DNA from: a virus
DNA: 64,000 bases
Virus record (IMG/VR): IMGVR_UViG_3300045988_076381
Reading direction: 5' to 3' (one strand)
Shown in pieces: positions 2,690-48,044 of the stretch. The translations under genes and the position numbers were made by a program. Numbering within the stretch: the first letter of the stretch is position 1; every line of letters starts with the position of its first letter. The notes below the pieces were generated by a model. The model worked only from the letters and a program-made list of their open reading frames with translations. It was not told where the DNA came from and did not search any database.

Positions 2690-2751
2690 TTATAGCGGAT
2701 TCTGTCTAAAGATAACAGAACGATAGGGTGCGTATACTGATACGCCGCTGT
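2690..2751 (-). CDS. putative major capsid protein, exon 7 of 7
   Basis: Starts after terminal G2752 of intron F. T3088+AC gives Tyr, then SGVSVYAPYRSVIFRQNPL, TAA TAA. Confidence 0.6.
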
Positions 2752-3087
2752 CATTTATATTTAAATAAGATCGTTACTCTTATTCGAGCGTTTGCTCCAC
2801 TATGTCGCCATAGTGATTAGACTATATCTTTAACTTAAACACTGTTACCATATTTAAGTTACTCTCCATTTCCGATAGACTTCTATCGTACTCTACTCAT
2901 TTACTTGTTATAGGATTTCTCTATAACTACACTTTCGATAGTCGTTGAACTTTATATACTACTAAATGTGATTTAGTGTATATCTTAGCTGCTGATTGTC
3001 TAAGATAGAGTTTCCAGCAATTAGAAGAGTTGTTTTCTCTAATATCGCTACTAAAGGGGGTCTAAGCTTTAAAATTTTCAGATATCA
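2752..3087 (-). mobile_element. group I intron F (ORF-less, IA-like core)
   Basis: P1 GGGGUU/GACCCC with U3088.G3062. Plus-strand copies of P at 3012-3022, Q at 2988-2997, R (tagtcgttgaac) at 2939-2950, S at 2819-2828. Two P9-type hairpins. Ends at G2752. Confidence 0.75.
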
Positions 3088-3116
3088 AACCCCAGTAAAT
3101 CATTTTCTTGAGCCTC
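3088..3116 (-). CDS. putative major capsid protein, exon 6 of 7 (29-nt micro-exon)
   Basis: G AGG CUC AAG AAA AUG AUU UAC UGG GGU U. This is the only frame that connects exon 5 (phase 2) to exon 7 (phase 1). Confidence 0.55.
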
Positions 3117-3411
3117 CTGATCATTTTTGATCAAGAATCTTCATATTTCCATGAAGAACAGACTATATTATCACTTTTAAAAGTGTCTCCTCTTTCGAAC
3201 TTATTTAAGTTCTATGCCTATTTAATAGGACTTACTAGTCGTTGAACCTTTTTCTTTATTTAAAGAAACTTGGCTGCGGATTGTCTAATATTTAACCTTG
3301 TTACTATACCGAAGTAGTTACCTTCGCCATATAATTATTGCTAATTATATTTAGTAGTTAAATCTCTAAAGATGTTCCCGCAATTTAGGAGATTAGGATC
3401 CAAAATGATTC
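3117..3411 (-). mobile_element. group I intron E (ORF-less)
   Basis: P1 GGAUCU/GGAUCC with U3412.G3401. P AAUUGCGGGAA (3375-3385) and Q AAUCCGCAGC (3273-3282) covary relative to the other five introns. R at 3236-3247, S at 3160-3168. Ends at G3117. Confidence 0.75.
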
Positions 3412-3472
3412 AGATCCTGCAACTGGTGTGCTAGCGGTTCCTCCTGAGATACCGTCGATCCCGCCTCAAAGG
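3412..3472 (-). CDS. putative major capsid protein, exon 5 of 7 (61 nt)
   Basis: Only one of three frames is open: (S)FEAGSTVSQEEPLAHQLQD(L). Flanked by terminal G3473 and the P1 of intron E. Confidence 0.6.
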
Positions 3473-4809
3473 CTATTTTCTTATATTTTCATATAAGTTA
3501 GACTATATCATTAACTTGTTATAAGTTTATTCAATATATTTAAACACAAACCCTTTACAATGTGAAGCAGTTCCTTTAAGAACCTTGCTAACATTAGCAT
3601 ATTGTTTTCTACATTCCCTAACAGTATCAAATGTTTCTAATAGATTTCCTTCAAAATCATATCTTCCTACTTTTCTTTTTTTACATGGATTGAAATTTTT
3701 GGGAATTTCTAATTTATCTACTTTCTCCCAAGACCAAAAGTATCCACCATAACTTTGATTTAGATTTATAGCATTAGATAATCTATTTTGTTTTAAATTA
3801 CAAAATTCCTTAGCTTCTTTAGAATTTTTAAAACTACGTAAAAAATTACCTTCTAAATCATACTGATAGATAGGGTCATTACTTCTTTTTCTTTCTTGAG
3901 ATTTTATTGGATAAACATCAAATTTTCTATCGGAAATATAATATTTAGATATTTTAGTTCCTAATTTTACAGCTTTCTGTATTGAACTAAGATTAACATC
4001 TAAGTATCTAGCTGTATCAGACATAGATTTAAATTCCATGAAAAATACTCCTTTAGAAGTATATAAATAAGTTGATTTCTTTTGTAAAATAGGTTTGTTA
4101 GACAGATCTAGTTTATCAACTTTTATATCAGACCAATAAAATTCTCCACTCATACTTCCATTCAATACTGCACGCCCAATTGCAGCTTCATGAATATGAA
4201 TATGATCAGATGCCTCTTTAATACTATTAAAAGATCGTAAATAGTTTCCGGATAAAGAATACTGGTATATAATTTTATTTAATAATGGAGGAGTATCTCC
4301 GCCTAATGTAATATTATATGTATCAGATCTTCCAATGAAATTTTCATTTACTAAAAATCTTTCAATATTTTCTGCTTCTTCTCTTGTATTACATATAAAT
4401 AATGTAACTCTAGAGAAAGCATCAAATCCGTATTTCTTAACAGCACTCTGAAAAGGAGTTTTTGGATGTAATATACTAGATGGTTTATATATATTTACCC
4501 CATTTCCCAAATATCCATCAAATTTATCAGGATTCTCTGTTTCGTGTATTCCAATATAAATTTTTCTGTTTTTATTATTTATCGTTAGGTATACTATAGT
4601 TTTCATATATTGTGTTTTTACTTATACATTAAGTTATTTCCCATTTCGGAAGTAGAACTTCCTACGTCTATCCAGACTAGTCGTTGAACCCAATTTTGGA
4701 GTTTACATAAGTCTTACATATCCCAAAACCTTGGCTGCTGATTAGCATGTAATATTTATATTATTTAGCTTTCCAGCAATTAGAGAAATTTATTTTTCTG
4801 CATATCACT
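3473..4809 (-). mobile_element. group I intron D carrying a GIY-YIG gene
   Basis: P at 4771-4781, Q at 4734-4743, R at 4678-4689, then ORF 3527..4606, S at 3500-3509, GNRA-capped hairpin. Ends at G3473. Confidence 0.75.
3527..4606 (-). CDS. GIY-YIG homing endonuclease (intron-encoded)
   Basis: N-terminal IVYLTINNKNRKIYIGIHET...GYLGNG...EAENIERFLV (GIY-YIG core). C-terminal repeats YQYxLxGNxLRSFxSxKEA are typical DNA-binding modules of I-TevI/Seg-like enzymes. Paralog of 6465..7547. Confidence 0.8.
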   Translation of the reverse strand: MKTIVYLTINNKNRKIYIGIHETENPDKFDGYLGNGVNIYKPSSILHPKTPFQSAVKKYGFDAFSRVTLFICNTREEAENIERFLVNENFIGRSDTYNITLGGDTPPLLNKIIYQYSLSGNYLRSFNSIKEASDHIHIHEAAIGRAVLNGSMSGEFYWSDIKVDKLDLSNKPILQKKSTYLYTSKGVFFMEFKSMSDTARYLDVNLSSIQKAVKLGTKISKYYISDRKFDVYPIKSQERKRSNDPIYQYDLEGNFLRSFKNSKEAKEFCNLKQNRLSNAINLNQSYGGYFWSWEKVDKLEIPKNFNPCKKRKVGRYDFEGNLLETFDTVRECRKQYANVSKVLKGTASHCKGFVFKYIE

Positions 4810-5328
4810 ATGCAGCGGCGCAAGCGGATCTATTTACGCCAATTACATCAGTTTTAATCATATCACAGCCCTTGAACGTCCAAGATTCAATAGCTGGTTT
4901 TCCGTTAGCTAAGTCCGGAGTTAAGTCAAGAATAAATCCAAATGCTTGATCAGGATATTCTATATTTAAAGCTTTATCCGGCATAAAAGTAATCGTATTA
5001 CCCTGATATTCATAGCTAACAAAAGTATTACCTACTTTAACACCATCAACCGTTTCACCTACTTTCTTCTTCATACCAGAAGATTTACTATACATCAAAG
5101 TAGCAGTAGGAGTCCACCTTCCAATTTCATCCATTAAGTTATCACCAACCTGATTCCAAAGTAAAGAGTTACAGATTAATACGTAATCATTACCAGTTAA
5201 ATTCTTTGCCTTAGAGGTTAAGAAACTTAATGCTTCTTTGAAGTGTGAAGTAAGTAATTGATCGAAAGAGATTAAGTATGCATATCTTTCAATTTGAGGA
5301 ATTATCATTTGTGTTAGCTTTATGTTAC
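4810..5328 (-). CDS. putative major capsid protein, exon 4 of 7
   Basis: Track ORF 4808..5308 extended 5' to the splice acceptor. Ends at T4810 (phase 1), which is required by the only open frame of exon 5. Confidence 0.7.
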
Positions 5329-5514
5329 CATAAAGATCAGACTATATCTTAATCTTATATATTTAATTATTAAGATCCCCTCCATTTCGAGAAATTTTTC
5401 TCTACTCCATATTGGATAGTCGTTGAACGTTTCTTATAAAAGACTTCGCTGCTGATTGTCTTTATATTTAAAGATGTTCCAGCAATTAGAAGGGTGTTTC
5501 AGTATTTATCACTA
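5329..5514 (-). mobile_element. group I intron C (ORF-less, only about 186 nt)
   Basis: P1 UUUAUU/GAUAAA with U5515.G5510. P at 5477-5487, Q at 5448-5457, R at 5417-5428, S at 5339-5348. P7 GACUAU/AUAGUC. Extra hairpins between P7 and P3' (IA hallmark). Ends at G5329. Confidence 0.7.
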
Positions 5515-5542
5515 AATAAAGCGGCAAATTTCTTACCGTCGC
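5515..5542 (-). CDS. putative major capsid protein, exon 3 of 7 (28-nt micro-exon)
   Basis: GCG ACG GUA AGA AAU UUG CCG CUU UAU U between terminal G5543 and the P1 of intron C. Least certain exon. Confidence 0.5.
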
Positions 5543-5849
5543 CTATATACACTATTTATACTTTATATCACTATAAAGATTAGACTATATCATCAACTTA
5601 TCTTGTAACAATTATTTTTATTTAATTATTTAAGTTGTTCCCTGCTTCCATATATAAATATGTACGTCCGAAGACTAGTCGTTGAACTTTCATTAAATAT
5701 GATATAAATATATACAATATTTAATGCTTAGCTGCTGATTGCCTTTAAGTAGCAGATTAAAGATATTCCAGCAATTCAAGGAATTTAATTTATCATACTG
5801 TTTCCAGTATGCGACCCATGTTTAACATAGACGTTTGTTAAAATTTCCC
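5543..5849 (-). mobile_element. group I intron B (ORF-less)
   Basis: P1 GACCU/GGGUC with U5850.G5817. P2 CAUACUG-GAAA-CAGUAUG. P at 5766-5776, Q at 5731-5740, R at 5676-5687, S at 5582-5591. Ends at G5543. Confidence 0.75.
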
Positions 5850-6431
5850 AGGTCTCTGCGTTTGCGAATCAATTATAGTCGGTTTTCCGTTCTTATCCAC
5901 ATTACTACGTGCCCAAAGATCATGTTTAGCTTTAACTTCCAAGAAATTCTCAATCAAGGTCTTTTCCATTGAAGTCATAGTAAACAATTTCTCACTTCCC
6001 TTAGTTTCTGTATCACTAATTTTCAAGAATACATCTTCATTAGCTAAATAGGCTTGAGATGCATCAATATCATTTCTATGTAAGGTTAAGTAGTTACGAT
6101 GAACCTCCATATTAGACTGATATTTAGTCGTTCCAAAGTCGTGATAATCAAACGGATGAGCATTTGATAAGAAGTGAGTAGTCATACCAGGTTGACACGC
6201 AGAAGTATCAAGATACGACATATAATCAGTATCGATTAATCGAACAGTGTATTCATAATATTTATTACTTCTCCAAATTGGACGAGCAGTAACATAACAC
6301 TGTTGATGTGATTTATCTATCACGAAAATATCATGTTTATCGTAGTATTTTTCTTTAAACAACATCCGAATTTCAGTTCCTCCAACACCATCGCCTTCTG
6401 GAACAGCAACAAACGGAATACGTTTAATGAA
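5850..6431 (-). CDS. putative major capsid protein, exon 2 of 7
   Basis: Track ORF 5838..6365 extended upstream in frame (FIKRIPFVAVPEGDGVGGTEIR-MLFKEK...) to the acceptor. 582 nt = 194 codons. Confidence 0.7.
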
Positions 6432-7701
6432 CCTATTCTATTTAAAGAACTTAGACTATATCATTTACTTATTAGTATGATATTTAAAGATATAATCTTT
6501 ATAATATCTATCCCCCATCTGGATATTCTTTAATTTATTTGATGGGATATTGTATTTTTCTCTTACTTCTTTTATAGTATTTAAAGTCTCTATATAATTC
6601 CCAAATTTATCATACACATCAATTATCATTCCATTAGAATAACATTTTTGTGGAACTTTAGATACTTCTGTAGTAGATATGTAATAATCCTTATACCATC
6701 CCTCGTTATAAGATAATATATTCTGAATTTTAGCCCATGAATGAAGATTTATAACCTTCATTACTTCTTTCCCTTTAAATCTTCCTATATAATTTCCTTC
6801 TTTATCATATACATAATAAATAAGATTCTTACAACTTATCCTAGCCTTCGGAATAAATTCATCTACTAACTTCTTAGATATATAATATTGATTCTGTACT
6901 AGAGACTGATTTTTAATAGCTTTACTTATATCTAATATTCCTATATATTCAGCACATTCCTTTTCTGATTGAAACTCATTTAAGAGCTTCCCTTTTTTAG
7001 AATATAAATATACAGAAATAGGTGGATTAGATTTCTTACAATATTTAATAACATCTATCTCTGGTTCTAATGCCCAATAAGAATTAAGAAATTCACATTT
7101 CTTATCTATAGCATATTGAAATTTTTTAGGAGATTGTCCGTAAAAATCAAATACTTCTAAAGAATATTCCCATTTCTTTTGTAACTCTCCAGATGTATTA
7201 AATTGATAAATTGTTTTATATAAATCTGTATTTAAATAATTATAAGTATGATCCGCTTTTAAATACTCAGTATTTATTAACTCAGATTCTTTATTATACG
7301 CCTCTTCTAGAGTATCATAAATATATAAAGTAGTTCTCTCAAATGCTTTTGTTCCATACTTTTTAACAGCATATTGAAATGGAGTTTTTGGGTACATATA
7401 AGTACTTGGTTGATCTATATAAACTCCACACCCTAAATATCCATCAAAAGTATTAGGATCATTTGTCTGATGCACTCCAATATAAATTTTATTTAACTCT
7501 CCAACTTTAGATTTTAAATTTTTAGTAAGATATACAATATATTTCATAAGTAATTCAGTTTTTTAATCTTATTTAAATAATAAGATTTACAGGTTTCCCC
7601 TAGTCGTTGAACACTGTCTTCATCAAGACCATGCTGCTGATTATCTCTAGTAGCAGTAGAGAGTTCCCAGCAATTTAAAGAATTTATTGTGAACCTCATT
7701 G
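6432..7701 (-). mobile_element. group I intron A carrying a GIY-YIG gene
   Basis: P1 GUGAAU/GUUCAC with U7702.G7694. P at 7664-7675, Q at 7633-7642, R at 7601-7612, ORF 6465..7547, S at 6453-6462. Ends at G6432. Confidence 0.8.
6465..7547 (-). CDS. GIY-YIG homing endonuclease (intron-encoded)
   Basis: IVYLTKNLKSKVGELNKIYIGVHQT...GYLGCG...EAYNKESELI plus repeated C-terminal DNA-binding modules. Paralog of 3527..4606. Confidence 0.8.
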   Translation of the reverse strand: MKYIVYLTKNLKSKVGELNKIYIGVHQTNDPNTFDGYLGCGVYIDQPSTYMYPKTPFQYAVKKYGTKAFERTTLYIYDTLEEAYNKESELINTEYLKADHTYNYLNTDLYKTIYQFNTSGELQKKWEYSLEVFDFYGQSPKKFQYAIDKKCEFLNSYWALEPEIDVIKYCKKSNPPISVYLYSKKGKLLNEFQSEKECAEYIGILDISKAIKNQSLVQNQYYISKKLVDEFIPKARISCKNLIYYVYDKEGNYIGRFKGKEVMKVINLHSWAKIQNILSYNEGWYKDYYISTTEVSKVPQKCYSNGMIIDVYDKFGNYIETLNTIKEVREKYNIPSNKLKNIQMGDRYYKDYIFKYHTNK

Positions 7702-7941
7702 ATTCACATCCACGTCCCATTCGATAGCAAAAGCATCAATACTCTTACGTCCGGGCTTAGGAATATCTTGATAAACCATATTTTCAATTCTCTCAGTTAA
7801 AGCTGATACAGTATGTCCGGGACATAAAGATGCAGCTAAACCTACTCTATGAGTAATTCGTCCCAAGAATTGGGAGAAGTCATGAAAAGTTCTTGAGCCA
7901 TTCATATTGGCTCGATTTGAAATGTATTCTGCTACAAACAT
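7702..7941 (-). CDS. putative major capsid protein, exon 1 of 7
   Basis: ATG at 7941, 19 nt after the scaffold-like gene. 80 codons ending ...EWDVDVN at the P1 splice-site U. The capsid call rests on position after the scaffold and the 506-aa spliced size. Confidence 0.7.
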
Positions 7942-7959
7942 TTTAAATTAAATTTAGAT

Positions 7960-9027
7960 CTAATCCTTTAGGTTAAGAAAACTTTTTAAATCTGAATTTT
8001 CTATTTTATTACCTTTACCTGTTGATAGATTAGATGTGTTATTACTACGTTTTTTATTTTTAAGTTTACTTAATTTCTCTAGTCTATTCTTTAGGTACTC
8101 TTCATCGTTAAGTACATTATTATAATGTTCATGAATAGCTTCAATTAGTTCGTCTCCATGAGTAGCATAAAATGCTAATTTAAATAATGTATCTGGATTA
8201 TCTAAATCACTTGCAAGTTTTGTCCTTCCCGTAATCTGGGGTTTAGTTATATAATCCATTGTACTATCTATATCTGATTCTTCAAGGTCAAAACCTCCAA
8301 TAGTCTTAATATTTTTTCCAGCCTCTCTAAGAGTACCTATTATCTTATTTAATTCTTCCTCAGATAACTGAGAGTCTTGTTCTTCTTTCTGTTTAGCTTC
8401 GGCAGATAATCTTTCTTCTTCTGCTTTATATATCTCACGTAATTTATTAACCTTTTTCTCAAAAGATTCAGAATTTTCTTTAGCTTTATTTACTTCATCA
8501 ACTAATTCATCTTCTGTTAAAATATCTCCGTAATTATTTTTTATATATAAAGCATATATATCCTCATCTGATAATTCATCTACCTTATAAACAGCTCCTT
8601 CATTTGCTAAATATTCCTCAATTCCTTTCTGTTTGTAATAATTTACTAAAGATTCGGAGTTAAGGTTATTTTCACGCATAAATGTAAGAAGATTTATCTC
8701 ATCATCGTCTAGGTTATAATCATCTTCTTCTAAATTAAGAAGTTCTATTTGTTCTTCTCTGCTTAACTCAGTAAATGGGACACTGTGAATTACTCCGGTT
8801 TCAGTATCCTCTATTTTTATATTATTAAAATCTATTCCTCTAGATTTAAGAACAGACTCTAATAAAGATTGTTCGTCTATAACAGGAGAAGTATTCTCCT
8901 CTGTATTAACTTCCTCTTGGGAAGTATCTTTTTTACCATCCACATTCTCCTCAGATGATTTTTGAGGAGTAGATTCTTCGTCTAATGAGTTGAAGATATC
9001 TAAATCATTTTCATATTCCATATACAA
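7960..9027 (-). CDS. putative scaffolding protein
   Basis: 355 aa, very acidic with long coiled-coil-like Glu/Lys stretches, immediately upstream of the capsid gene. Based on composition and position only. Confidence 0.45.
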   Translation of the reverse strand: MYMEYENDLDIFNSLDEESTPQKSSEENVDGKKDTSQEEVNTEENTSPVIDEQSLLESVLKSRGIDFNNIKIEDTETGVIHSVPFTELSREEQIELLNLEEDDYNLDDDEINLLTFMRENNLNSESLVNYYKQKGIEEYLANEGAVYKVDELSDEDIYALYIKNNYGDILTEDELVDEVNKAKENSESFEKKVNKLREIYKAEEERLSAEAKQKEEQDSQLSEEELNKIIGTLREAGKNIKTIGGFDLEESDIDSTMDYITKPQITGRTKLASDLDNPDTLFKLAFYATHGDELIEAIHEHYNNVLNDEEYLKNRLEKLSKLKNKKRSNNTSNLSTGKGNKIENSDLKSFLNLKD

Positions 9028-9033
9028 TATTTA

Positions 9034-9324
9034 TTACAGAAGTTCTATATATTCCCCAAACTCTGCTAAAGACTTCTTTCTAATATTAAAAGGAGTAGAG
9101 GAAATAGTTTCTTTAAGAGAATTTTTATATTTATCATCCAATTCAAATGATTCCGATTCTACATTCTCTTCTAAAATTTTCATAATCTCTAAATCTCTTT
9201 TAATTGTAGATAAAGTTAAAGCTTTTTGGCTCGGAACTTCATAACAAAATAACATTAAACTTACATAATTAGCCGGACGCTGTGCATCCACTTTAATGTC
9301 AATAGGCTTATTTTCAATAATCAT
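9034..9324 (-). CDS. hypothetical protein
   Basis: 96-aa ORF packed 6 nt upstream of the scaffold-like gene. Confidence 0.5.
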   Translation of the reverse strand: MIIENKPIDIKVDAQRPANYVSLMLFCYEVPSQKALTLSTIKRDLEIMKILEENVESESFELDDKYKNSLKETISSTPFNIRKKSLAEFGEYIELL

Positions 9325-9399
9325 AGTTCATTAATTTTTAGTTATTCATCCACAAAAGTAGATAATATTTGTATGTAATACAATAAATAAATAAAAATT

Positions 9400-10017
9400 T
9401 TATTTTTTAATTTTATACGATTGTATCTTTATCTTATCTTTAAAACAATCAGATGTTGCAGTAATTTTACTAATATAATGATTCCGGAATCCTATTGTAT
9501 TATATCCGAATTCTTTTCTTTTCCTAAAATTATACCAATATATAATATCTCTATAGTCTATTATAGTTATATTTATATCAAAATCTAAAGAATCTATAGT
9601 AAGATATAATTTCTCATTATTAATTTCTAGAGTTTCATGTAATGTAATACAATCAATAGATTTAATTATCGGAATACAAGTATCTTTTATTATTTCAATA
9701 TTATTTAATATAGTATCTCTAATTACTTTAGTTGTGTTTATATTAGCTTTAATTACATTGTCTAATTGTTTAATCTTTAAATCTTTTTTCTCTAATTCCG
9801 ATTTAAGTAAAGAATCCTTTGATAAAATTATTCTTTTAAATTGTTTCTCTGTTACGATATGTACTTGTTGAAGAGAATCTATTGTACATAATTCTGAGGT
9901 ATGAATATCTTTTAAATCTCTAATTTCTCTAGATTGTTTATCTACTAGTTTTATTAAATATATTAAGGATATGATAAAGATTCCTAATGTAATATATTTA
10001 ATTAGTATTGTTTTCAT
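9400..10017 (-). CDS. membrane-anchored protein (N-terminal TM helix)
   Basis: 205 aa. ITLGIFIISLIYLI hydrophobic N-terminus, then a coiled-coil-like region. Confidence 0.5.
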   Translation of the reverse strand: MKTILIKYITLGIFIISLIYLIKLVDKQSREIRDLKDIHTSELCTIDSLQQVHIVTEKQFKRIILSKDSLLKSELEKKDLKIKQLDNVIKANINTTKVIRDTILNNIEIIKDTCIPIIKSIDCITLHETLEINNEKLYLTIDSLDFDINITIIDYRDIIYWYNFRKRKEFGYNTIGFRNHYISKITATSDCFKDKIKIQSYKIKK

Positions 10018-10252
10018 TATTATTAGATTTATTTATATTCTTTCTCCATATAGATGTAATAGTGTCAGCCCCTAATAGAGTAGTACTACATATGAAGAGC
10101 ATATCTACTATTTCTGGGGATTCTATTACTTTTATTGTGCACCATATACATATAAATAAACAAACTATCCACCCAAAAAATCCACATACTCTCTTAGAAC
10201 TTAATCCTGAATGAGCTGTGAACATCTTAATAAAGAAATTATTACAGTTCAT
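9998..10252 (-). CDS. small two-TM membrane protein (holin-like)
   Basis: 84 aa with two hydrophobic helices (GFFGWIVCLFICIWCTI, MLFICSTTLLGA) and a charged C-terminus. Function inferred from topology only. Confidence 0.4.
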   Translation of the reverse strand: MNCNNFFIKMFTAHSGLSSKRVCGFFGWIVCLFICIWCTIKVIESPEIVDMLFICSTTLLGADTITSIWRKNINKSNNNENNTN

Positions 10253-10280
10253 TTTAGAATCTGATTATAATATTATATAC

Positions 10281-10655
10281 TTATTCACCTTTAAAACCAG
10301 GAAAATATTTTTTATAATTTTCTGTAAACCATTTAGCGAGATCTTTTTTCATTTTGATTTCTTCTCCAGTTTTCATGCTTTCTTGTATAGCCGCGTCTAA
10401 TGAATATGGAGGTCTTGTATAATCAATTAATTTTCCTGTTTTCTTATCTTTTTGTACAGATGGATAAACATATCCATGAATACCATCATCACTCCATCCC
10501 ATTTTATGTGTTGCAATTGATAAAGGATCCACCCAGTCTTGAATAAATTCTCTATTTGGATCCTTTAATCTATTGATAAAATCAATATTTTTTATATTTT
10601 TAATTGCAGTTATTAATTTAGATGTGTCTGTAATATGTGATAAATCAACTGGCAT
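10281..10655 (-). CDS. hypothetical protein
   Basis: 124-aa ORF. No motif recognised. Confidence 0.5.
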   Translation of the reverse strand: MPVDLSHITDTSKLITAIKNIKNIDFINRLKDPNREFIQDWVDPLSIATHKMGWSDDGIHGYVYPSVQKDKKTGKLIDYTRPPYSLDAAIQESMKTGEEIKMKKDLAKWFTENYKKYFPGFKGE

Positions 10656-10812
10656 TTTGTTTAATATTTAAATTTGTAGTATATTTAATTTAGACAGTAT
10701 AAGAGTTAATAATTCATTATTCTCTTTTACATAATCTAATATACATAATATTTGTTGGGATTGGGGACATTTATCACATCCTTTACATTCCCTTAAAGAA
10801 TCTTCCATATTA

Positions 10813-11586
10813 TTAAGCGTCTATTGTTAAATATTCTATAATCATTCTGGGATTATTGTAATCTATATTACCTTCTTGTATACCTCCGATTTGTAGTCCA
10901 ATAGAATCTAATGGGATAGCATTAACATTTCCAAAATCCCATAAAAGTGCTCTTATACTATTTGATTCATTGATATGATATAACTTATTATTTATATATT
11001 CTATTGCGAAAATATTAGCTTTTCCCATATCTCCTCCATATATTATAGGATGATTAATTGGATCAGCATTTCCATTAACGTCTTGTACTACTATTTTAAT
11101 TGTTGGGTTAGTAGTATCTGTACTTCTTAATATACTTAAATACTTTCTATCATTAGTATCTGATACTAAAAGAGTTAATAAACAATTATAAGAATTTTCA
11201 GAACTTCCAATAGCAGTAATAGTATATCTAAAAGAAACTCTCCAATTATTTTTTCGATTCTCGAATAGATTAGCTATTAATATAGATGAATAATCTTTCA
11301 TAAACATGGCTCCAGTGCTACTATGCGAAATTGCTCCTACTTTTCGAATAACTGAAGTAACAGAAGATGTAGTTGTATTAGATGCTCCATTATATAAAAA
11401 GATCCGAGATAATATTTTAATTATATCATCATCTGCTGGAAAATCATATAAACTATAACTACTAAGTGGAGTAGGATCGGCTCCAGAGAGAATAGCTCCA
11501 TCTTTATGTATAAAATTCATATTTGTACTACTAGGAGATCCTAATCTATTAGCAGCATCTTTAAAAGTTAAAAAATCCTTACTCAT
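10813..11586 (-). CDS. hypothetical tail-fibre-module protein
   Basis: 257-aa ORF, last gene of the fibre/RBD cassette. Confidence 0.5.
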   Translation of the reverse strand: MSKDFLTFKDAANRLGSPSSTNMNFIHKDGAILSGADPTPLSSYSLYDFPADDDIIKILSRIFLYNGASNTTTSSVTSVIRKVGAISHSSTGAMFMKDYSSILIANLFENRKNNWRVSFRYTITAIGSSENSYNCLLTLLVSDTNDRKYLSILRSTDTTNPTIKIVVQDVNGNADPINHPIIYGGDMGKANIFAIEYINNKLYHINESNSIRALLWDFGNVNAIPLDSIGLQIGGIQEGNIDYNNPRMIIEYLTIDA

Positions 11587-11590
11587 ATTT

Positions 11591-11905
11591 CTAAGTTTTA
11601 GTTCCGAATACTATCCAATCTATAGTTTTTGGATCTTTTCCTCCACTATACAATTCTATATATGTCTTTGTTACACCCATAACATTACAAGAATATCCAG
11701 CTTCATTATTTCCCCGAAATGAACATACAGCAGTTCTTGGTATATAATCTCCTTGTAACGATACTCTAGTTTCAGTATGTCCCTCACATAAAGTACTTCC
11801 TATCTCAAATACCAAAGGACCTAATGTCATGACTACATGACCTGGTCTAATTATATCATGTGTAGTCTCTAATATATTATCTAATTCCGTTATAAACTCC
11901 GCCAT
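11591..11905 (-). CDS. small receptor-binding-domain-like protein, paralog c
   Basis: MAEFITE... N-terminus, RGNNEAGY and GGKDPKTIDWIVFG motifs shared with 11943, 12224 and 12670. Resembles the C-terminal tip domain of tail fibres. Confidence 0.6.
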   Translation of the reverse strand: MAEFITELDNILETTHDIIRPGHVVMTLGPLVFEIGSTLCEGHTETRVSLQGDYIPRTAVCSFRGNNEAGYSCNVMGVTKTYIELYSGGKDPKTIDWIVFGTKT

Positions 11906-11942
11906 AATTGATTATTTACTGATAATCCTATTATTAAAAATG

Positions 11943-12221
11943 TTACAGTTTTATCATCTTTTCCCCCAGAGAAAATGTTACTCCTGTAGTATTTAAACTA
12001 GATATACTTATAGCATATCCTTGTTCATCATTATTTTTTAATGAAGCCATTCCGGTAATTATCCCACTAAATCCTTTTAATGGTACAGAAACAACATCAT
12101 ACCCAGGACAAGTAGTAGTTCCATAAGCGATTCGTAGTCCTTTATAATTTATATATGTAACAGGATCTACCATTTCCACGGAATAGTCCTCTAAATTATC
12201 TTCTGTTAAAAATTCAGCCAT
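11943..12221 (-). CDS. small receptor-binding-domain-like protein, paralog b (C-terminus displaced to -1 frame)
   Basis: MAEFLTE..., LKNNDEQGY. The annotated frame ends ...SLGEKMIKL*, but the family motif GGKDDKTVTFLIIG is encoded in the -1 frame from the G5A4 run (11963-11967) to the stop at 11890. Confidence 0.55.
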   Translation of the reverse strand: MAEFLTEDNLEDYSVEMVDPVTYINYKGLRIAYGTTTCPGYDVVSVPLKGFSGIITGMASLKNNDEQGYAISISSLNTTGVTFSLGEKMIKL

Positions 12222-12223
12222 AT

Positions 12224-12517
12224 TTAATCACTTTCTCCTATTATTAAATAATAAAATTCTTTAGGATCTTTCCCTCCGAGTATGAAAATAGCCGAGGTAT
12301 TAGTATAAGAGGATAAATTTACTGTATAACCTGCTTCATTATTATTTTTTAAACAACAGAATACTCCATATACTGATTTAAATCCGGAATAAGTAATTGT
12401 TATACCTCTACTAGTTATAGAAGAATATCCTCCAACCATTCTGAGTCCTAAACCTTCAATCCCTCCAGATCCAGTAGAATCTAAAGCTCTATCGTCTACA
12501 GTTAGATATTCTGCCAT
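12224..12517 (-). CDS. small receptor-binding-domain-like protein, paralog a
   Basis: MAEYLTV..., LKNNNEAGY, GGKDPKEFYYLIIG. Confidence 0.6.
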   Translation of the reverse strand: MAEYLTVDDRALDSTGSGGIEGLGLRMVGGYSSITSRGITITYSGFKSVYGVFCCLKNNNEAGYTVNLSSYTNTSAIFILGGKDPKEFYYLIIGESD

Positions 12518-14078: not shown

Positions 14079-16463
14079 CTATAGTAGCAAATTCTTCTGA
14101 CATAATTCTTTTAAATTACTTATTTCCTGTTCTAAATATTTTATTTTTTTCTCAAATTCTTTCTGAGATTTAATTCTTAAATTATATTCCTCTTTTAAAG
14201 CCTCTTGAAGAAGGATTGTATATCTTTCATATGAAAATGTTAAAATAGAATTATTTATTTCTTTTACAAGCTCTGGATAATATTTATTCCAGTATTGAGC
14301 TGAGGTTCCTATACATAAATCATTCTCGTCCATCCAATTATATTTAAATCCGGGAGAATTTAATACTAAAGATAATGTATTAGATAAATTCTCTATATTA
14401 TGCTTGTATCTAATATCAGATACAGAAGTTGTTCCAGCTCCATTTGTATGAACAGTATGTTTTGTGAAAGTGATTTCGTCAAGACTATTAATCTTAGCCA
14501 TTATTGTTTCAGGTGTTTCTCCGGAAGAATTCATTAATGTATCTACATCAACCCTTAAACTAAGAATATTCTGTTGTAATGGAACTAAATCAGATAGATA
14601 AGATATTTCATTATCTCCCCATGTAATCCTTCTATTAAAAGTGCTAGGTATATTAAACACGTTATTAGTCCCCTCTTTATTTGGAATCCATACTCGAAAA
14701 TCAGTATCCATACCTAGTATCGACCAGTTTATTTCTTTTGTAGAAGGTGCAGATAATTTAAGCATTCCGTTTATCTCACAATCTCCTTTTAATCTTATAT
14801 ATCTACAATACACTTTTTCAGAATAGACTCCGTATATATCAGAACCTAATAAAGTATCAAAATATATAGGATCTCTAATACCTTCTAAACACCCTAATCT
14901 TAATCTAGGAGATAAGGGTGTAACTTCATCATTTATACCTAAATAAGATTTATCTAAACATTCTCCAGTCTTAGGATTTGTTTCTCTAATACTATGTAAA
15001 TATAAAGAATCTTGAGTTTTTAAATATAAAATATCCCCAACTTCTGGAAGTTTTTCTAATTCTCTCTTTCTTTCCTCATCAGTAGTTTTATCTAAATACT
15101 CTTCTAAATCCTTATCTAAAACATTCCCATCGATAGTAGCAACTATATTACATCCAGAAATTGTAAAAGTACCCTCATCATAAATCCATTCTAATTTTTC
15201 AATCTTAATTCTTCCTTTAGATATTATTTTAGTAGTAGGAATTAAAGTACTTACATCAATCCCTTCCTCAGAATTTTCTGGGATTTCTACATTATATCCA
15301 TAAGAATGCTTCTCAAAATATAAATAATCTCCTATTTTTATATTATAAATCCCATTTATAGATATCTCATATTTAATAGGAATAACTTCTCCAGATTCTC
15401 CAGATTCTTCTTCATCAGGAACTATTTCAGATATACTAGATACAATTCCTTGTGGTTCAAAGAAATAATTAGTATTTAATCCTCTAGTAATAAAATCCTT
15501 CTCTTTAGATGAACTATCCCCAAACGGGCCTTTAGCAGAATTTCTCACTATTAAATTATCTACTTCTAAAGTCCACTCTGAATTTATATTCTCTAATCTA
15601 TATCCAGCCATTCCCTCTATGAAATTATCAGATATTATTCCAGAATTAAGAACAGCTTTATCTTTCACATATATATTTCCATCTACCTCAAAATTATAGT
15701 TATAAGTTGGGGGATATCCTATAGATATATATTTTCCATTTATATATGTGATACCTTCTTTAGAATTAAATTTAATTCCAGAAGTATTAGTATCTAAAAC
15801 TATTTCATTATTATTAACTACTATATTTAAATAATCTTGTTGATTTTTTACCTGCAACCCGTTTGGACCAATTACATTAAGATCTCCGGACCCATGGAGA
15901 TTATTTTCTAAATTAATAGTCACTTTATCTTTAACTATTCCTCCAGAGGATAGATTTAGATATAATTCTACTAAAGTTCCATTGTTATTATAGTAATGAA
16001 CTTTATCATCAGAATTAAAATAAACAAAATCAGTAGGTAAGATTGCAATATTATCTTGGTTATCTATAATAACTTTTAAATTCCTTTGAGCAGTTCTGAT
16101 TTGTTCTAGAGTAAGATTTTGATTATAATTGATAGCTAAATAATCCTCAGAAGTTTCTACGTCGTCTCTATTAGATAATATTGGATATAGCACTCCATTT
16201 ATTTGAAAATAAATTGAATCTTCTGATTTTACAAAATACCAACCATCAGCAGCTCCTATATCATTTTTATTCTGAACAATATTTATACTATTAGTATCAT
16301 CAGTAGTCTTACATACCTTTCCATTAGAAATAAGATCTAAAAAAGAATTTCCGAATCTAACTTTTATATTACCTTTTCCATTAAGAATAATATCAGTATC
16401 AGCAGATCCTACCATTAAATATGGCTTTCCTAGAATCTTTTCTACTTTAATAAGTTCTCCCAT
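14079..16463 (-). CDS. tail fibre/spike with C-terminal S74 intramolecular chaperone domain
   Basis: 794 aa. C-terminus TSVSDIRYKHNIENL...FKYNWMDEND...GTSAQYW...FSYERYT matches the autoproteolytic chaperone domain of endosialidase-type fibres and is followed by a coiled coil. Confidence 0.8.
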   Translation of the reverse strand: MGELIKVEKILGKPYLMVGSADTDIILNGKGNIKVRFGNSFLDLISNGKVCKTTDDTNSINIVQNKNDIGAADGWYFVKSEDSIYFQINGVLYPILSNRDDVETSEDYLAINYNQNLTLEQIRTAQRNLKVIIDNQDNIAILPTDFVYFNSDDKVHYYNNNGTLVELYLNLSSGGIVKDKVTINLENNLHGSGDLNVIGPNGLQVKNQQDYLNIVVNNNEIVLDTNTSGIKFNSKEGITYINGKYISIGYPPTYNYNFEVDGNIYVKDKAVLNSGIISDNFIEGMAGYRLENINSEWTLEVDNLIVRNSAKGPFGDSSSKEKDFITRGLNTNYFFEPQGIVSSISEIVPDEEESGESGEVIPIKYEISINGIYNIKIGDYLYFEKHSYGYNVEIPENSEEGIDVSTLIPTTKIISKGRIKIEKLEWIYDEGTFTISGCNIVATIDGNVLDKDLEEYLDKTTDEERKRELEKLPEVGDILYLKTQDSLYLHSIRETNPKTGECLDKSYLGINDEVTPLSPRLRLGCLEGIRDPIYFDTLLGSDIYGVYSEKVYCRYIRLKGDCEINGMLKLSAPSTKEINWSILGMDTDFRVWIPNKEGTNNVFNIPSTFNRRITWGDNEISYLSDLVPLQQNILSLRVDVDTLMNSSGETPETIMAKINSLDEITFTKHTVHTNGAGTTSVSDIRYKHNIENLSNTLSLVLNSPGFKYNWMDENDLCIGTSAQYWNKYYPELVKEINNSILTFSYERYTILLQEALKEEYNLRIKSQKEFEKKIKYLEQEISNLKELCQKNLLL

Positions 16464-19720: not shown

Positions 19721-22700
19721 TTATATTAATTTTTGTATTAAAGAAGTTAAATCATTTAATCTAGTATTTAAAGAGTTGATATCTTCTTTAAATTTCTTTC
19801 TTTCTTCTTCTCTTAATCTATGTTCTTCTTTTAAAGCTTTTTGTAGTACTACTGTATATCTTTCATATGAGAAAGTTTTTGTTCCATCCTCCATCTCATG
19901 TACTAATTCCGGAATTTTATCTTCCCAATATTGTGCTGAGGTACCTATAGAGGTAGTTGTTTCATCCTTCCAGTTATATGTAAATTCTGGAGCATTGAGG
20001 ACTTTATTTAAAGTATCATCTGGTAAAGAATTAAAATTAGATTTGAATCTTATATCTGATGTAGATTGTAACCCTGCTCCAGCTGAACATACTACATGCT
20101 TCGTAAAAGTAATCTCGGATTGAGAATTAATTTTTGACATAATAGTAGCAGCTGTCTCAGCACTTGGAATAGAAGGCCTGTTACTTAAATCATTATAACT
20201 TCCGGATGTAGCTACGGTAGCAAATGATGGTTTACTTGTGACTTCACTCCAAGATGGCCAACGAGTCACATAAGCTGAGGGTGCAGCCTTTAACAAAGCA
20301 TCCCAAGAAGCTTGTAGATCACTAATATCAGATAAAGGATGTGTGTGACTTGACGGAGTAAAGGTACTTGGTTTACTTGTTATCTCAGACCAAGAATAAG
20401 AAGGCTTACTTGGTGCTTTTGCCCACGCATACACATCAGAAGCAGGCATTGAAGACGGAAAATCTGTTATCTGAGACTTGGCATGTGTATGACTAGAGGG
20501 TGCGGCTTCAATAAGCGTTCTTACCTCAGAAGGTGCAATATCTCTAAATACTTTGCATCCATTTACTAATGTTTTATCAATACCCACAAGATGTGATGCT
20601 GTAGAAGCAGTTAATCCATATCCATTATAAGCAAGCTGGATGTTATTGCTACCCCCACCTGAATCCAATATATATGTTGCCGGACCCCCAGCACTAGGAG
20701 AAGCAGCATAATTATGGGTATGAGAACTAGCAGCTGCCCCAATAGCAGCAGGAGTGATATTCACAGTTTTAGCTGCATTAGGAGCATATGTGGTATTAGT
20801 AGATCCGTTGAATTTGATAGTTAATGCTGCTATGTTAGACGTATCTAAAATAGTATATTGTGTACCATTTTTGCAGTGCATTAAATTAGTATTACTTGAT
20901 CGCAGTATCATTTGATCTACCACGGTACCAATTTCTACTTGTGTATTAGTTACTCCATCAACTCCAGCTTGATGGTAGGCTAGTAGAGCATTACCATCTA
21001 TACTTTCTATATAATTTGTGTTAATTCTGGGAACAGTTAACCTTCCAGTAAGAGTACCACCAGTAAGAGGCAAATAACCACTCAAATGAGTAGTAGTAGC
21101 TAACTCCTTCCAAGCTGTGTGTTCATCCTTATTACTTCCTGCTGGTGATCCAGCTCTAACAAACCATCTGTTAGAAGTATAGGTTCCATAGATTTGACTT
21201 GAACCATCATATACTCCGGGAATGACGATAAGAGATCCTGCTTGCTGTATTGGGTATCCTCTGTCTGTAGTAGCATCACTATTAGCTGGTTGAGCAGCCA
21301 TCATCGGAAAATGATTAAACGAACTATTTAAGCTTGTAGTTCCGAGATTCCTTGAGAAATTATAAGAATCAAATATCAGACAATGCACACCATTTCTATA
21401 ATGTAGTAGATCAGAACTATTTGATCTAAATACCAGTTGAGAGTCTGGTGTGCCTACTCCTACTTGTGTATTACTTACTCCAGTCCAATCTGTTGGATGA
21501 TAACTCAATAATCCGAGTTGCTCACGAGTAGTCGATATTGAATCTACATTTAACTTATTATAAATAATTACAGGAACATTTGTACCTGACGGCCCTCCTA
21601 CTACAATCCTATTATCGGATCCCATGTATATCCCTTCCACCCATGTTCCTCCGGTCTGCTTAAAAAGAATCCCATAAGTATTAGATAATACAGGCCTTCC
21701 ATCTGCAGTTATAGACATTTGCCCTCTGCCATTATAAGGATAGTATACAGTACTTAAATCTGATATATCATCTTTAAAAGCTAATTCTTTATACCAAGTA
21801 ATCTTTCCACTGTCCCCACCTCCAATAACAGCTTTCATAATATTACCTTCGTGTGCTACACTAAGGTAAGCATGAGTATCCCCGATGGCCCATCCTAAAG
21901 AGGCAGCATGAGCTCCGGCAGTTCCTAGGTCTGCCGAACCACTTCTGAAAGGCACTACCCAAGAAACACCGGAATTTGACCCCCAGATAGTTTCTGGAAA
22001 CTTATTTATAAGATTATCCCCAAAAGATGAAGAGGAAACTGATTTTATTCTAGTAGCTTTAGGAGTCCCTATAATATTTCCCTCTAAAGTGTAATTTAAT
22101 AAAAGTTCTTCTACATTTAAGTTACTAGTATCATAGACTGTGTACTCAGCACCATTCTTATAATGTTTTATATCATTGTCTCCTATAGTATGAATCGTAG
22201 TCTGTGAATTCTGATCATTTCCGGAAGTAATTATTCCAGATTTAATATTTCCATTAACATCAGTATACCCTAATCTAGTGACATAACTATTTCCGGAATT
22301 ATCTATATTTAATAATGCAGTATTGCCTAAATCACCTCCTATTAAAGTTTCATAATCCCCGAAGCTTCCTAGATATAAAGAAGTACCATTAGTACTATTC
22401 CTCATAAATAAAGCCCATGCATTTTCTCCAGTATCAGTCTTATTTACTAACGCGGAAGTTGGAGAAAAATATAAAGGACCAGTTAAAGCATTTGTAGATC
22501 CGGCACTTAGAGGTAAGTAATGACCAACTAAAGATTCTACGGTAGCAAAGGGTTTTCCATCTTTATCACAGAAATTTCCCCACATTGGAAAATTAACATG
22601 TAATGGAGTATATGTTGAATTAAGATTATATGTAACACTTCCATCAGATCCTGTAGTTTCAGTAATTTCTATAGTATTTTGTTCAATATCTGGGACATTA

Positions 22701-26762: not shown

Positions 26763-27562
26763 TATTTTCTACAATTGCAAGAATTAAATCCAGAGGAGTA
26801 TTTAAGATAGTCATTATTACAAAATCCCCCACAAACCTGAATTTCTTCTATAATTCTCTCTGCTTCGTAATAACTACATTTATCTATTAATCTATGTATT
26901 AATTCTAAAGCTATAAATACCATATTTCTATCTCTAAATACCTGAGAAATATTATTATCATTTTTTATATTACATCTAGTATACAATTTATTATAATAGA
27001 TATATTTTAATTTATTCTCATAACAATATTCTAAATTCCCTAAAAGAAATGTCTCTTCTTCAATCCCTATTATATTAGAGTTAGATTGATTACTATATAA
27101 ATCCATTATAGATACTTTCTTTTCAGTATAACTTCCGGATATAATAGTTATTTCATAGATCTCTACTTCTCCATTTGAAAGTTCTTTCGCGGAATAGAAT
27201 ATTTCCCCTTCCATATTTAAACTAGATGGAGATACTCCATGAACCCATTCGTAATTAGGTAATGCTAAATGATCTATTATATGCCATCCATCTATTTTAG
27301 TAGAATAATTTAATTTATAATCAGTATATTCTTGATCTGAATGACATACATAATAAAAATCAGATACTTTAGGATCTTCAATAGTATTTAAAGTAATCAA
27401 ATCAATAAATACAATATCTTTTGTTCTTAAATAATTAGAAGATATCTGTGATACTTCTGGATAGATACTACTAGTACTTATACCAGTAGTATCCTTCAAT
27501 GTAAATCCAGATATTCCATATTCAGTTAATGAAATGCTTAAATTTAATGAAATATTTTTCAT
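26762..27562 (-). CDS. hypothetical virion-module protein
   Basis: 266-aa ORF with start/stop overlaps to both neighbours. Confidence 0.55.
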   Translation of the reverse strand: MKNISLNLSISLTEYGISGFTLKDTTGISTSSIYPEVSQISSNYLRTKDIVFIDLITLNTIEDPKVSDFYYVCHSDQEYTDYKLNYSTKIDGWHIIDHLALPNYEWVHGVSPSSLNMEGEIFYSAKELSNGEVEIYEITIISGSYTEKKVSIMDLYSNQSNSNIIGIEEETFLLGNLEYCYENKLKYIYYNKLYTRCNIKNDNNISQVFRDRNMVFIALELIHRLIDKCSYYEAERIIEEIQVCGGFCNNDYLKYSSGFNSCNCRK

Positions 27563-45628: not shown

Positions 45629-45701
45629 GGTCCCATAGCGTAAAGGTTAACGCAAAACACTCATAATGTTGAGATTCTAGGTTCAAGTCCTAGTGGGACC
45701 A
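45629..45701 (+). tRNA. tRNA with CAT anticodon (Met or lysidine-Ile)
   Basis: Hand-folded cloverleaf: acceptor GGTCCCA/TGGGACC, D stem GCGT/ACGC, anticodon loop CTCATAA, T arm CTAGG-TTCAAGT-CCTAG. Confidence 0.85.
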
Positions 45702-45824
45702 CGATATTGATTTTCAGGATTTCTGAGGTTTAGAATTTCTGGATTAATGTTTTTTGTAATTTTTTTCATGATCAGTGTTTAACATTAGCAACATTTAATG
45801 AGATGTGATATCTCCTTCCTTATT

Positions 45825-45849
45825 AAGGAGAGTTAATACTCTCCTTTTT
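45825..45849 (+). terminator. hairpin terminator candidate
   Basis: AAGGAGAGT-TAAT-ACTCTCCTT followed by TTTT. Confidence 0.5.
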
Positions 45850-45965
45850 AAATTTGTTTATTATGAGAAAGATAGATATAAAATACATAATGACAATAAT
45901 AGGAATATTTATATTTCTATTATTATTATCTTCATTAGAATCAATCATTAATTCTATTTAAATAA

Positions 45966-46039
45966 GAGCGAATATCCAAATTGGTTAAGGGAATAGTCTG
46001 CAAAACTATATTGTGAGAGTTCGAATCTCTCTTCGCTCT
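45966..46039 (+). tRNA. tRNA-Cys (GCA)
   Basis: Acceptor GAGCGAA/TTCGCTC, anticodon stem ATAGT/ACTAT with loop CTGCAAA, T arm GAGAG-TTCGAAT-CTCTC. Confidence 0.85.
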
Positions 46040-46156
46040 CATTAAATATTATATTTAAAAGGTTATATTCGGAAATATATAAGAATGATATCTTTTAAAT
46101 ACTTTAAAATTATATTAATTAAAATAAATAAAAATAATCTTTTAAATATAATAATT

Positions 46157-46426
46157 ATGAAGATCGTGATTAATAGATCCGGAATTGGATTAAATCTATC
46201 TCTACCAGCTATAGAGTATTTAATTAAATATAAAGTAATTAAGTCTCCATTAGATATGAGAAATATTAATAGGAGTAGCCCAAGATTGGTAAGATGTATC
46301 GAAGTATTAGGAGATAACGCATCTTTAGATATGTTAGAAACGATAACAGTTAGAGATGATTTTAAATATAAAATCTCTGAAATCCAAATAGGTAACATCC
46401 ATAGAGAAATTATCCTCATGGAGTAA
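46157..46426 (+). CDS. hypothetical protein
   Basis: ATG at 46157 (MKIVINRSGIGLNLS...) inside track ORF 46085..46426. Preferred over the low-complexity antisense ORF 46063..46419. Confidence 0.45.
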   Translation: MKIVINRSGIGLNLSLPAIEYLIKYKVIKSPLDMRNINRSSPRLVRCIEVLGDNASLDMLETITVRDDFKYKISEIQIGNIHREIILME

Positions 46427-46594
46427 GATATTTACATATGTAAATCTAATTAGTGTACAATAATTAGATATTCCAAGCTCTACTGGTTACAGAGTATAAA
46501 TAAACCTAGATTTTTAGATTTCCAAATTGACCTAAAATCTAATATCTTAGGATTAGATATAAAATAAGCGTGGAATACTTATTGTTAAATCAAC

Positions 46595-46664
46595 TTCTTA
46601 GTAGTTTAACTGGTGAAAATGTCATATACAGTAGGAAATATTAGTTCGAATCCAATCTAAGAAG
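46595..46664 (+). ncRNA. tRNA-like element with unpaired anticodon arm (pseudo-tRNA?)
   Basis: Acceptor TTCTTAG/CTAAGAA, U8-A9, D arm GTTT-AACTGGTGA-AAAT, T arm ATTAG-TTCGAAT-CCAAT. No 5-bp anticodon stem can be drawn in 46621-46639. Confidence 0.35.
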
Positions 46665-46710
46665 TGATAAAGAAACTCATATAATTCATATCTTAATATT
46701 AACCCGAAAA

Positions 46711-46796: not shown

Positions 46797-46824
46797 TTTT
46801 ATTAATAATTTTGTTTATATTCTA

Positions 46825-48035: not shown

Positions 48036-48044
48036 ATATATTAT

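Follow-up and report, generated by a model that had tools for sequence, protein, structure and literature searches.

A capsid gene in pieces

The minus strand of the IMG/VR virus record IMGVR_UViG_3300045988_076381, a stretch of 64,000 nucleotides (nt) that was analysed whole and is referred to here as the window, carries an interrupted gene at positions 7941-2690. On its sequence, we assign this gene to a crAss-like (Crassvirales) phage as its major capsid protein gene, a member of the Pfam Crass_capsid family. Only parts of the gene are visible as open reading frames (ORFs). The capsid fragments lie at 7696-7941, 5838-6365 and 4808-5308, as had been listed in a first-pass annotation made from the DNA sequence, and two further minus-strand ORFs of about 360 amino acids (aa) occupy 6465-7547 and 3527-4606. 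The largest ORF fragment matches Pfam PF23898 (Crassvirus major capsid protein) and the PHROG family 'major head protein'.

The first-pass annotation had read the region as a single capsid gene of seven exons, separated by six group I introns. This core reading is upheld by a covariance-model search, by uninterrupted homologs and by intron-minus alleles in related phages, and our confidence in a corrected version of it is high. In the corrected model (Table 1), exons of 240, 582, 18, 470, 55, 19 and 59 nt join to give a reading frame of 1443 nt, encoding 481 aa.

A protein search returned 66 capsid homologs, most of them annotated with PF23898. The exons were mapped by placing an uninterrupted homolog of 482 aa, P0001 (66% identity over the whole length), on the DNA by tblastn, followed by an alignment of 15 full-length uninterrupted homologs. 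The 481-aa product aligned to these 15 proteins without gaps, and peptides spanning its junctions include RPVYIGDGIIPQIER and TPVAGSKMIYWGYSGVSVYAPYR. In the region of exon 3, every aligned homolog reads RP-[IVL]YIGDG-IIPQ. The spliced product scored 47.3 bits against PF23898 (E = 1.4e-12; family cutoff, 27 bits), with an alignment over aa 94-315 that reaches far enough to pass junctions B and C.

The exon boundaries of the first-pass annotation required extensive revision. Its joined exons do give 1518 nt and 506 codons with no internal stop, but the 15 homologs identify the real product as the 481-aa protein: set against all of them, the 506-aa join contains three stretches of inserted, non-homologous residues (11, 7 and 7 aa), and its PF23898 match is lower (32.6 bits, aa 94-263). 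Homologs, intron-minus alleles and the pairing of intron guides with the upstream exon (P1) and downstream exon (P10) leave six of the twelve splice sites in place and move the other six. Exon 3 starts at 5552 rather than 5542 and ends at 5535 rather than 5515; exon 4 starts at 5305 rather than 5328 and ends at 4836 rather than 4810; exon 5 starts at 3466 rather than 3472, and exon 6 at 3106 rather than 3116. The small exons, given earlier as 28, 61 and 29 nt, become 18, 55 and 19 nt.

Besides its open frame, the earlier map had in its favour UUUAUU/GAUAAA, a possible 6-base-pair (bp) helix with a U.G pair at intron C; in the Rfam alignment, however, this helix is P2, with the U.G pair at U5535. 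At intron D, P1 has a U-A pair and P10 is missing at the earlier site; the revised site gives a U.G pair and a 7-bp P10. The intron-minus alleles described below also contradict its junctions, and we see practically no chance that the earlier splice map and its 506-aa protein are correct. Half of the map went astray because P2 of intron C was taken for P1, because a U-A pair was accepted at 4810 for intron D, and because several 3' splice sites were set to keep the ORF open rather than by homology.

Group I ribozyme cores

The whole window was scanned with the Rfam model Intron_gpI (RF00028; gathering score, 50 bits), first at the curated thresholds and then with permissive filters, which added the two ORF-bearing blocks. 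All six non-coding blocks matched, introns B, C, E and F above the gathering score and the ORF-bearing introns A and D below it (Table 1); intron C was the best match. Short motifs that had been reported earlier were also found as described. In 64 kb, the R element GTTCAACGACTA has exactly six occurrences (at 2939, 3236, 4678, 5417, 5676 and 7601), always on the minus strand and against 0.14 expected. P, Q and S elements are present in all blocks: the P...Q pattern occurs five times, with 0 expected, its sixth instance being the compensated P4 of intron E (GCGGG/CCGC), and the P7' motif ATATAGTCT was found in all six.

The core strands (P3/P4, P6, P7 and P7') stand in canonical order in all six introns, as AAUUGCKGGRA...AAUCMGCAGC...GUUCAACGACUA...AUAUAGUCU. 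The catalytic core is almost identical throughout, while overall identity between introns is only 52-67%, and the six are members of one subfamily and not recent duplicates. An insert of 29-67 nt between P7 and P3' folds as two hairpins, P7.1/P7.2, in introns B-F. Such hairpins are typical of subgroup IA, to which these five introns can be assigned on that feature, as the first-pass annotation had suggested for the introns generally; intron A lacks the insert.

No other group I intron was detectable in the remaining 56 kb of the window (8000-64000). Copies of ATATAGTCT also occur outside the capsid gene, on the minus strand at 50651-50659, 57628-57636 and 60586-60594. These three copies are probably fortuitous, since 2.55 copies are expected by chance and none has a covariance-model match.

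Guide pairing at the splice sites

The revised model places each of the six 5' splice sites after a U whose partner in P1 is a G (Table 1). Five such helices had been proposed in the first-pass annotation; those of introns A, B, E and F are retained, and the fifth is the P2 of intron C discussed above. In introns A, B, D and E, the guide strand of P1 runs on into P10 with the revised downstream exon, while the downstream exon starts of the earlier map give a P10 of 0-4 bp. For introns C and F the automatic P1/P10 scorer chose G.U-rich alternatives, and the pairings presented for these two follow the Rfam alignment and the sequence. A terminal G, which had been claimed for all six, is present in introns A, C, D, E and F, but intron B would end in A5553 if the protein is collinear with its homologs and the 5' splice site comes after U5850.

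The guides account for nearly the whole of exon 6, in which 16 of the 19 nt pair with the guides of the flanking introns (P10 of intron E and P1 of intron F). These observations suggest that the private guide of each ribozyme prevents exon skipping between nearly identical neighbouring cores.

A 3' splice site for intron C at G5318, the end of both the P9 hairpin and the Rfam alignment, was considered and rejected. It would add the residues LTQM, which are absent from intron-minus alleles, and two related loci (L004 and L017) carry an in-frame TAA between 5318 and 5306. A terminator-like hairpin called at 5538-5522 on the minus strand corresponds to the P1 stem of intron C (CGGUAAG...UUUGCCG) and is a false terminator. 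The tandem TAA codons and terminator hairpin that had been noted at the end of the gene are present.

Table 1. Exons, introns and associated features of the interrupted capsid gene, in window coordinates
Feature	Position	Strand	Length	Description
Exon 1	7941-7702	minus	240 nt	aa 1-80; ATG at 7941; tblastn to P0001 aa 1-80; ends GUGAAU, with U7702 in U.G pair with guide GUUCAC
Intron A	7701-6432	minus	1270 nt	Homing endonuclease gene inserted; ends G6432; P1 UGUGAAU/GUUCACA, 7 bp; P10 UUCAUU/AAUGAG, 6 bp; RF00028 36.3 bits, E = 1.2e-6, 7739-7535, match cut short by ORF
Intron A ORF	7547-6465	minus	360 aa	Putative GIY-YIG + NUMOD1 family; matches NUMOD1 and PHROG 314 'homing endonuclease'
Exon 2	6431-5850	minus	582 nt	aa 81-274; tblastn to P0001 aa 81-274, 73% identity; in Crass_capsid match
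Intron B	5849-5553	minus	297 nt	ORF-less; boundary ambiguous by 1 nt (alternative 5848-5552); P1 GACCU/GGGUC, U.G pair; P10 GUGU/ACAU, 4 bp, contiguous with P1 on guide; RF00028 77 bits, 5838-5561
Exon 3	5552-5535	minus	18 nt	Micro-exon GUGUAUAUAGGCGACGGU, VYIGDG, aa 275-280; alternative of 15 nt, 5549-5535
Intron C	5534-5306	minus	229 nt	ORF-less; P1 CGGU/GCCG; RF00028 107.2 bits, 5544-5318
Exon 4	5305-4836	minus	470 nt	aa 281 to first two bases of codon 437; tblastn to P0001 aa 281-437, 68% identity
Intron D	4835-3467	minus	1369 nt	Homing endonuclease gene inserted; P1 UGGCGU/GCGCCG, U.G pair; P10 AGGCGGG/UCCGCUU, 7 bp; RF00028 47 bits, E = 6.8e-10, 4845-4610 (5' part) and 26.3 bits, 3574-3480 (3' part)
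Intron D ORF	4606-3527	minus	359 aa	Putative GIY-YIG catalytic domain, then repeated NUMOD1 DNA-binding modules
Exon 5	3466-3412	minus	55 nt	Completes V437, then GGIDGISGGTASTPVAGS; tblastn to P0001 aa 438-455; gap-free with homologs
Intron E	3411-3107	minus	305 nt	ORF-less; compensated P4 (GCGGG/CCGC), long P5 insert; P1 AGGAUCU/GGAUCCU, U.G pair; P10 AAAAUGAUUU/GAAUCAUUUU, 10 bp; RF00028 66.1 bits, 3479-3139
Exon 6	3106-3088	minus	19 nt	Micro-exon AAAAUGAUUUACUGGGGUU, KMIYWG and first base of Y462; tblastn KMIYWG
Intron F	3087-2752	minus	336 nt	ORF-less; P1 GGGGUU/GACCCC; RF00028 88.2 bits, 3081-2798
Exon 7	2751-2693	minus	59 nt	tblastn SGVSVYAPYRSVIFRQN; TAA stop at 2692-2690, followed by second TAA
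Terminator-like hairpin	2679-2653	minus		Intrinsic-terminator-like hairpin and T run just past the stop codons

Intron-minus alleles and population polymorphism

A scan of IMG/VR gave 21 related loci (L001-L021), with an exon amino-acid identity of 93-100% and on contigs of up to 167 kb. Their capsid genes hold differing subsets of introns at eight sites, after aa 80, 180, 274, 280, 385, 437, 455 and 462; two of these, after aa 180 and aa 385, are unoccupied in the window. Between four and eight introns are found in the capsid gene per genome, with six in the window, seven in L018 and eight in L021 (IMGVR_UViG_3300045988_084568; gene at 6494-12299), where all eight are supported by RF00028. 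Intron A is present in 21 of 21 related loci, and intron E is absent from four (L013, L015, L016 and L020).

Natural intron-minus alleles reproduce the predicted junctions B, C, D and F at the nucleotide level. At site B, five such alleles (L001, L002, L003, L010 and L011) read AGACCC|GTTTATATTGG, and at site C, four (L007, L008, L013 and L015) read GGCGATGGA|ATTATTCCT. The site D junction is borne out by L009-L012, and seven loci have an uninterrupted junction at site F, of which two show identity over 36 nt. For junctions A and E, the match is with the uninterrupted gene of L023. Five loci have exon 3 joined without a break to exon 2, and five have it so joined to exon 4. At position -1, the intron-minus alleles have C or A instead of the U that the intron-bearing alleles require, for example AGACCC versus AGACCU at site B, GGA versus GGU at site C and GAAC versus GAAU at site A. 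Alignments of exon-flank divergence (co-conversion) ran into neighbouring introns, and only direct junction comparisons were used.

The related loci bear on the possibility that this is a decaying or unspliced gene, whose fragments are separate polypeptides or non-functional and whose introns are dead relics. Fragmentation of unexplained kinds has been described in Zeta-group crAss-like phages (Yutin et al. 2021, Nat Commun 12:1044, PMC7886860), in keeping with such a view. However, all six ribozyme cores are intact, and in 22 independent contigs the ORF left after splicing is both complete and conserved, regardless of the combination of introns. Pieces as short as the 18- and 19-nt exons cannot stand as genes of their own, and no second capsid gene was seen in the window. 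We consider decay very improbable, and retain the model of a gene that is spliced.

Compared with random positions, the insertion sites lie in better-conserved segments of the protein (P = 0.014 for the six sites, P = 0.004 for the eight). ORF-bearing and ORF-less forms of the introns coexist at sites X1, B, C, D and F, as would be expected if introns pass through cycles of homing, loss of the endonuclease and re-invasion. At site C, the long form is a 901-nt intron with a LAGLIDADG_2 endonuclease (89 bits; L001:7093-7999 and L016:8599-9505), whereas the window has the 229-nt ORF-less form. At site D, we considered whether the ORF-less intron of L021 (10113-10421) could be a simple deletion derivative of intron D of the window, and rejected this: only the first ~45 nt (P1-P2 and the guide) are common to the two, followed by ~65% identity. 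The comparison suggests mosaic or recombinant introns.

Homing endonuclease genes

The first-pass annotation had described two introns as carrying paralogous GIY-YIG genes and four as ORF-less. This description agrees with our results, the proteins of introns A and D being 37% identical (E = 9e-52). Each carries NUMOD1 DNA-binding repeats, with a NUMOD-like C-terminus of the I-HmuI type; the intron D protein scored 77 bits for NUMOD1 and 37 bits for I-HmuI_NUMOD-like.

Evidence for the GIY-YIG domain comes largely from relatives of these proteins. PF01541 matches 25 of 32 full-length family members (best E = 3.6e-7), in a sample that favoured members already annotated, and the paralogs at sites X1 and B scored 25.4 and 25.6 bits, above the cutoff. 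An AlphaFold (AF2) model of the intron D protein, with a predicted local distance difference test score of 87.7, has as its best PDB match the catalytic domain of I-TevI (1mk0; probability 1.0, target template modelling score 0.70). Six residues, Y6, Y17, G19, R66, E82 and N98, are invariant in the alignment of the endonuclease family, and would correspond to the catalytic Tyr, Tyr-x-Gly, Arg, Glu and Asn roles.

Proposed mechanism of splicing and intron spread

We propose that the capsid gene is transcribed as a pre-mRNA of about 5.25 kb, containing six group I introns of one subfamily. Each intron would locate its own splice sites through a private guide, paired with the upstream exon over its last 4-7 nt (P1, with the U.G pair at the cleavage site), and in introns A, B, D and E the guide would also pair with the downstream exon over its first 4-10 nt (P10). 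Self-splicing, initiated by guanosine, would then join the seven exons into the 1443-nt ORF, yielding a 481-aa capsid protein collinear with its uninterrupted homologs. The putative GIY-YIG/NUMOD1 genes of introns A and D sit in the P8 region, between P3' and P7', and the endonucleases presumably cut intron-minus alleles during co-infection, leading to the spread of the introns.

Several points weigh against this proposal. Self-splicing is predicted rather than observed, as are endonuclease activity and homing. Introns A and D fall under the RF00028 gathering score, because an ORF of ~1.1 kb is inserted in each. A convincing P10 was not found for introns C and F, and at intron B, U at -1 together with a terminal G is incompatible with a collinear protein. 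Among the proteins of the window, the intron D ORF reached 18.7 bits for GIY-YIG PF01541 (cutoff, 22.6) and the intron A ORF gave no match. I-TevI was not found among PDB sequences by phmmer of the intron D protein or by a profile of 32 homologs, which returned spurious weak matches only. The GIY-YIG assignment of the window's own proteins is weak by sequence, and appears plausible in the light of the family matches, the paralogs and the fold comparison. Finally, the window phage is probably of the large-genome Zeta type, but what suggests this is contig size only, related contigs reaching 160-167 kb (Zeta: 145-192 kb).

The junction of intron B

Group I introns almost universally have U at position -1 and a terminal G. 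The collinear mRNA at junction B would read ...AGA CCU GUG UAU AUA GGC..., a reading that follows from homolog collinearity, the intron-minus alleles and the contiguous P1/P10 register. It allows the 5' splice site to follow U5850 with the intron ending in A5553, or, alternatively, the terminal G to be at 5552 with cleavage following G5849. Pairing U5850 with G5552 was rejected, as this shifts the frame to a UAG stop. The local P1 that Rfam places in intron B (with U at 5829) was also rejected, as an in-frame TAA at 5841-5839 precedes it, and other nearby U residues as the 5' site would entail multi-residue deletions or insertions and leave P1 absent.

It is conceivable that intron B is fully canonical, with its 5' splice site after U5850 and its terminal G at 5550, in which case exon 3 would be 15 nt long (5549-5535) and the protein would have 480 aa, without Val275, the rest of the map being unchanged. 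Such an intron keeps the near-universal U and terminal G, and the frame is kept in its product. A changed terminal nucleotide is also made less likely by the guanosine-binding helix P7, in which intron B does not differ from the other five introns. However, P10 is absent from the 15-nt version, while in the 18-nt version a P10 of 4 bp adjoins P1 on the guide. Furthermore, all 46 homologs and the intron-minus alleles hold a hydrophobic residue between RP and YIGDG, and a related intron in L022, which is fully canonical with a 6-bp P10, lies exactly between codons 274 and 275. We therefore regard the 15-nt exon as rather unlikely and lean towards the 18-nt collinear exon 3, with moderate confidence. 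Intron B may then end in A. Its 3' end is not a sequencing error, since the same end is found in about ten independent contigs.

A second type of intron occurs at site B, inserted 2 nt downstream (CCUGU^C as opposed to CCU^GUG), in L009, L012, L014, L016, L018, L019 and L020. It has its own guide, GCAGG, and canonical ends (e.g. L014:3777-4076), and in L020 it carries a GIY-YIG ORF.

Comparison with known intron systems

Intron-riddled capsid genes are already known in crAss-like phages, and the window locus joins them. Yutin et al. (PMC7886860) reported an 'unprecedented density' of group I introns and inteins in the Delta and especially the Zeta groups, with up to 14 introns per genome in Zeta phages of 145-192 kb, and found the major capsid protein gene of OLRF01000054, a cMAG from the Zeta group, in five fragments. 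The first-pass statement that six introns are far above the usual number was, in view of this five-fragment gene and of relatives with up to eight introns, overstated. The Delta and Zeta genes resemble that of the window in the Crass_capsid family, in having several group I introns, some with endonuclease ORFs, and in genome size class. The window differs in having six introns and seven exons (its relatives, up to eight introns), and in that its exact splice sites are mapped, including those of the 18- and 19-nt exons. In the same study (PMC7886860), introns were identified chiefly via endonuclease domains, and further fragmentation was noted without explanation; the four ORF-less introns of the window would escape such a search.

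The introns also resemble the phage IA introns with GIY-YIG genes (T4 td/I-TevI; Twort and SPO1-type) in P7.1/P7.2 and in their insertion in conserved parts of essential genes. As in the T4 td/I-TevI type, a putative I-TevI-like GIY-YIG domain is combined with modular DNA-binding repeats and sited in a peripheral loop. The T4 td, Twort and SPO1-type introns number one to three per gene, and are found in genes for nucleotide metabolism or polymerases. In contrast, six to eight sit here in a structural gene, with micro-exons that are almost wholly guide-paired.

A very short exon between group I introns, with a possible missing terminal G, has a reported parallel in Coxiella burnetii's gene for 23S rRNA, where two group I introns, one of them without a terminal G, are said (by Raghavan and colleagues, in 2007) to surround a 34-bp exon. 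That system is a bacterial rRNA gene with two introns, whereas the window locus is a protein gene with exons of 18 and 19 nt, in which the end of intron B is deduced from collinearity.

The Jug (jumbo gut) phages of Bacteroides/Phocaeicola (PMC12880540) are likewise gut phages in which many short group I introns, ~18.5 per genome, split essential genes such as terL and nrdD, and metatranscriptome reads validated the splicing of 37 of 76 predicted introns. They are of a different lineage, different genes are interrupted, and the reported number of fragments is two to three per gene.

New here are the nucleotide-exact exon map, the four ORF-less introns and the 18/19-nt micro-exons, together with six introns in one gene (eight in relatives), their presence/absence polymorphism and the odd junction B. 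Gene callers split this essential gene, and introns have so far been counted mainly via endonuclease ORFs; ORF-less introns and micro-exons of 18-19 nt explain part of the 'unknown fragmentation' in Zeta-type crAss-like phages, and correct capsid sequences are gained for taxonomy and structural work. The locus also raises the question of how six to eight ribozymes whose cores are almost the same can each select its own splice sites within a single transcript. Long P10 helices private to each intron, together with micro-exons that are paired over nearly their whole length, suggest how the skipping of exons is avoided. As a ready-made data set, the eight-site polymorphism in near-identical gut phages bears on homing, on how endonucleases are gained and lost, and on the turnover of introns. 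As a tentative proposal, which we would stop short of calling probable, intron B would splice without a canonical terminal G (ending in A5553, or with cleavage after G), beside an 18-nt exon whose ends are guide-defined by two introns, and at the same time no denser polymorphic system of group I introns than this population would be known in a protein-coding gene. If this is true, the capsid gene population would be a natural model for the ordered splicing of tandem ribozymes.

Genomic surroundings and database records

When the region was compared by megablast with GenBank phages (INPHARED), there was no match. Elsewhere on the minus strand, the window encodes a P22-like portal protein of 745 aa and two proteins, of 794 and 1983 aa, with a C-terminal Peptidase_S74 intramolecular chaperone domain, typical of tail fibres and spikes. 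These three genes lie at 14079-16463, 19721-25672 and 27559-29796, and none appears to be intron-interrupted. Portal and S74 tail-fibre genes are what a crAss-like podovirus would be expected to have in its structural module.

Public gene calls for capsid relatives (P0002-P0006) are cut short at intron boundaries. P0003 ends ...TNRPKLLRIAA, reading into an intron, and P0004-P0006 begin at an internal Met. Intron-blind annotation thus puts capsid fragments into databases.

The capsid gene shows no sign of stop-codon reassignment, and no suppressor tRNA was found in the window's tRNA cluster. This cluster, on the plus strand at 45629-49765, comprises six tRNAs (Met, Cys, Met, Asn, Leu(UAA) and Gln(UUG)), and Rfam alone gave a weak extra tRNA match at 46595-46664.

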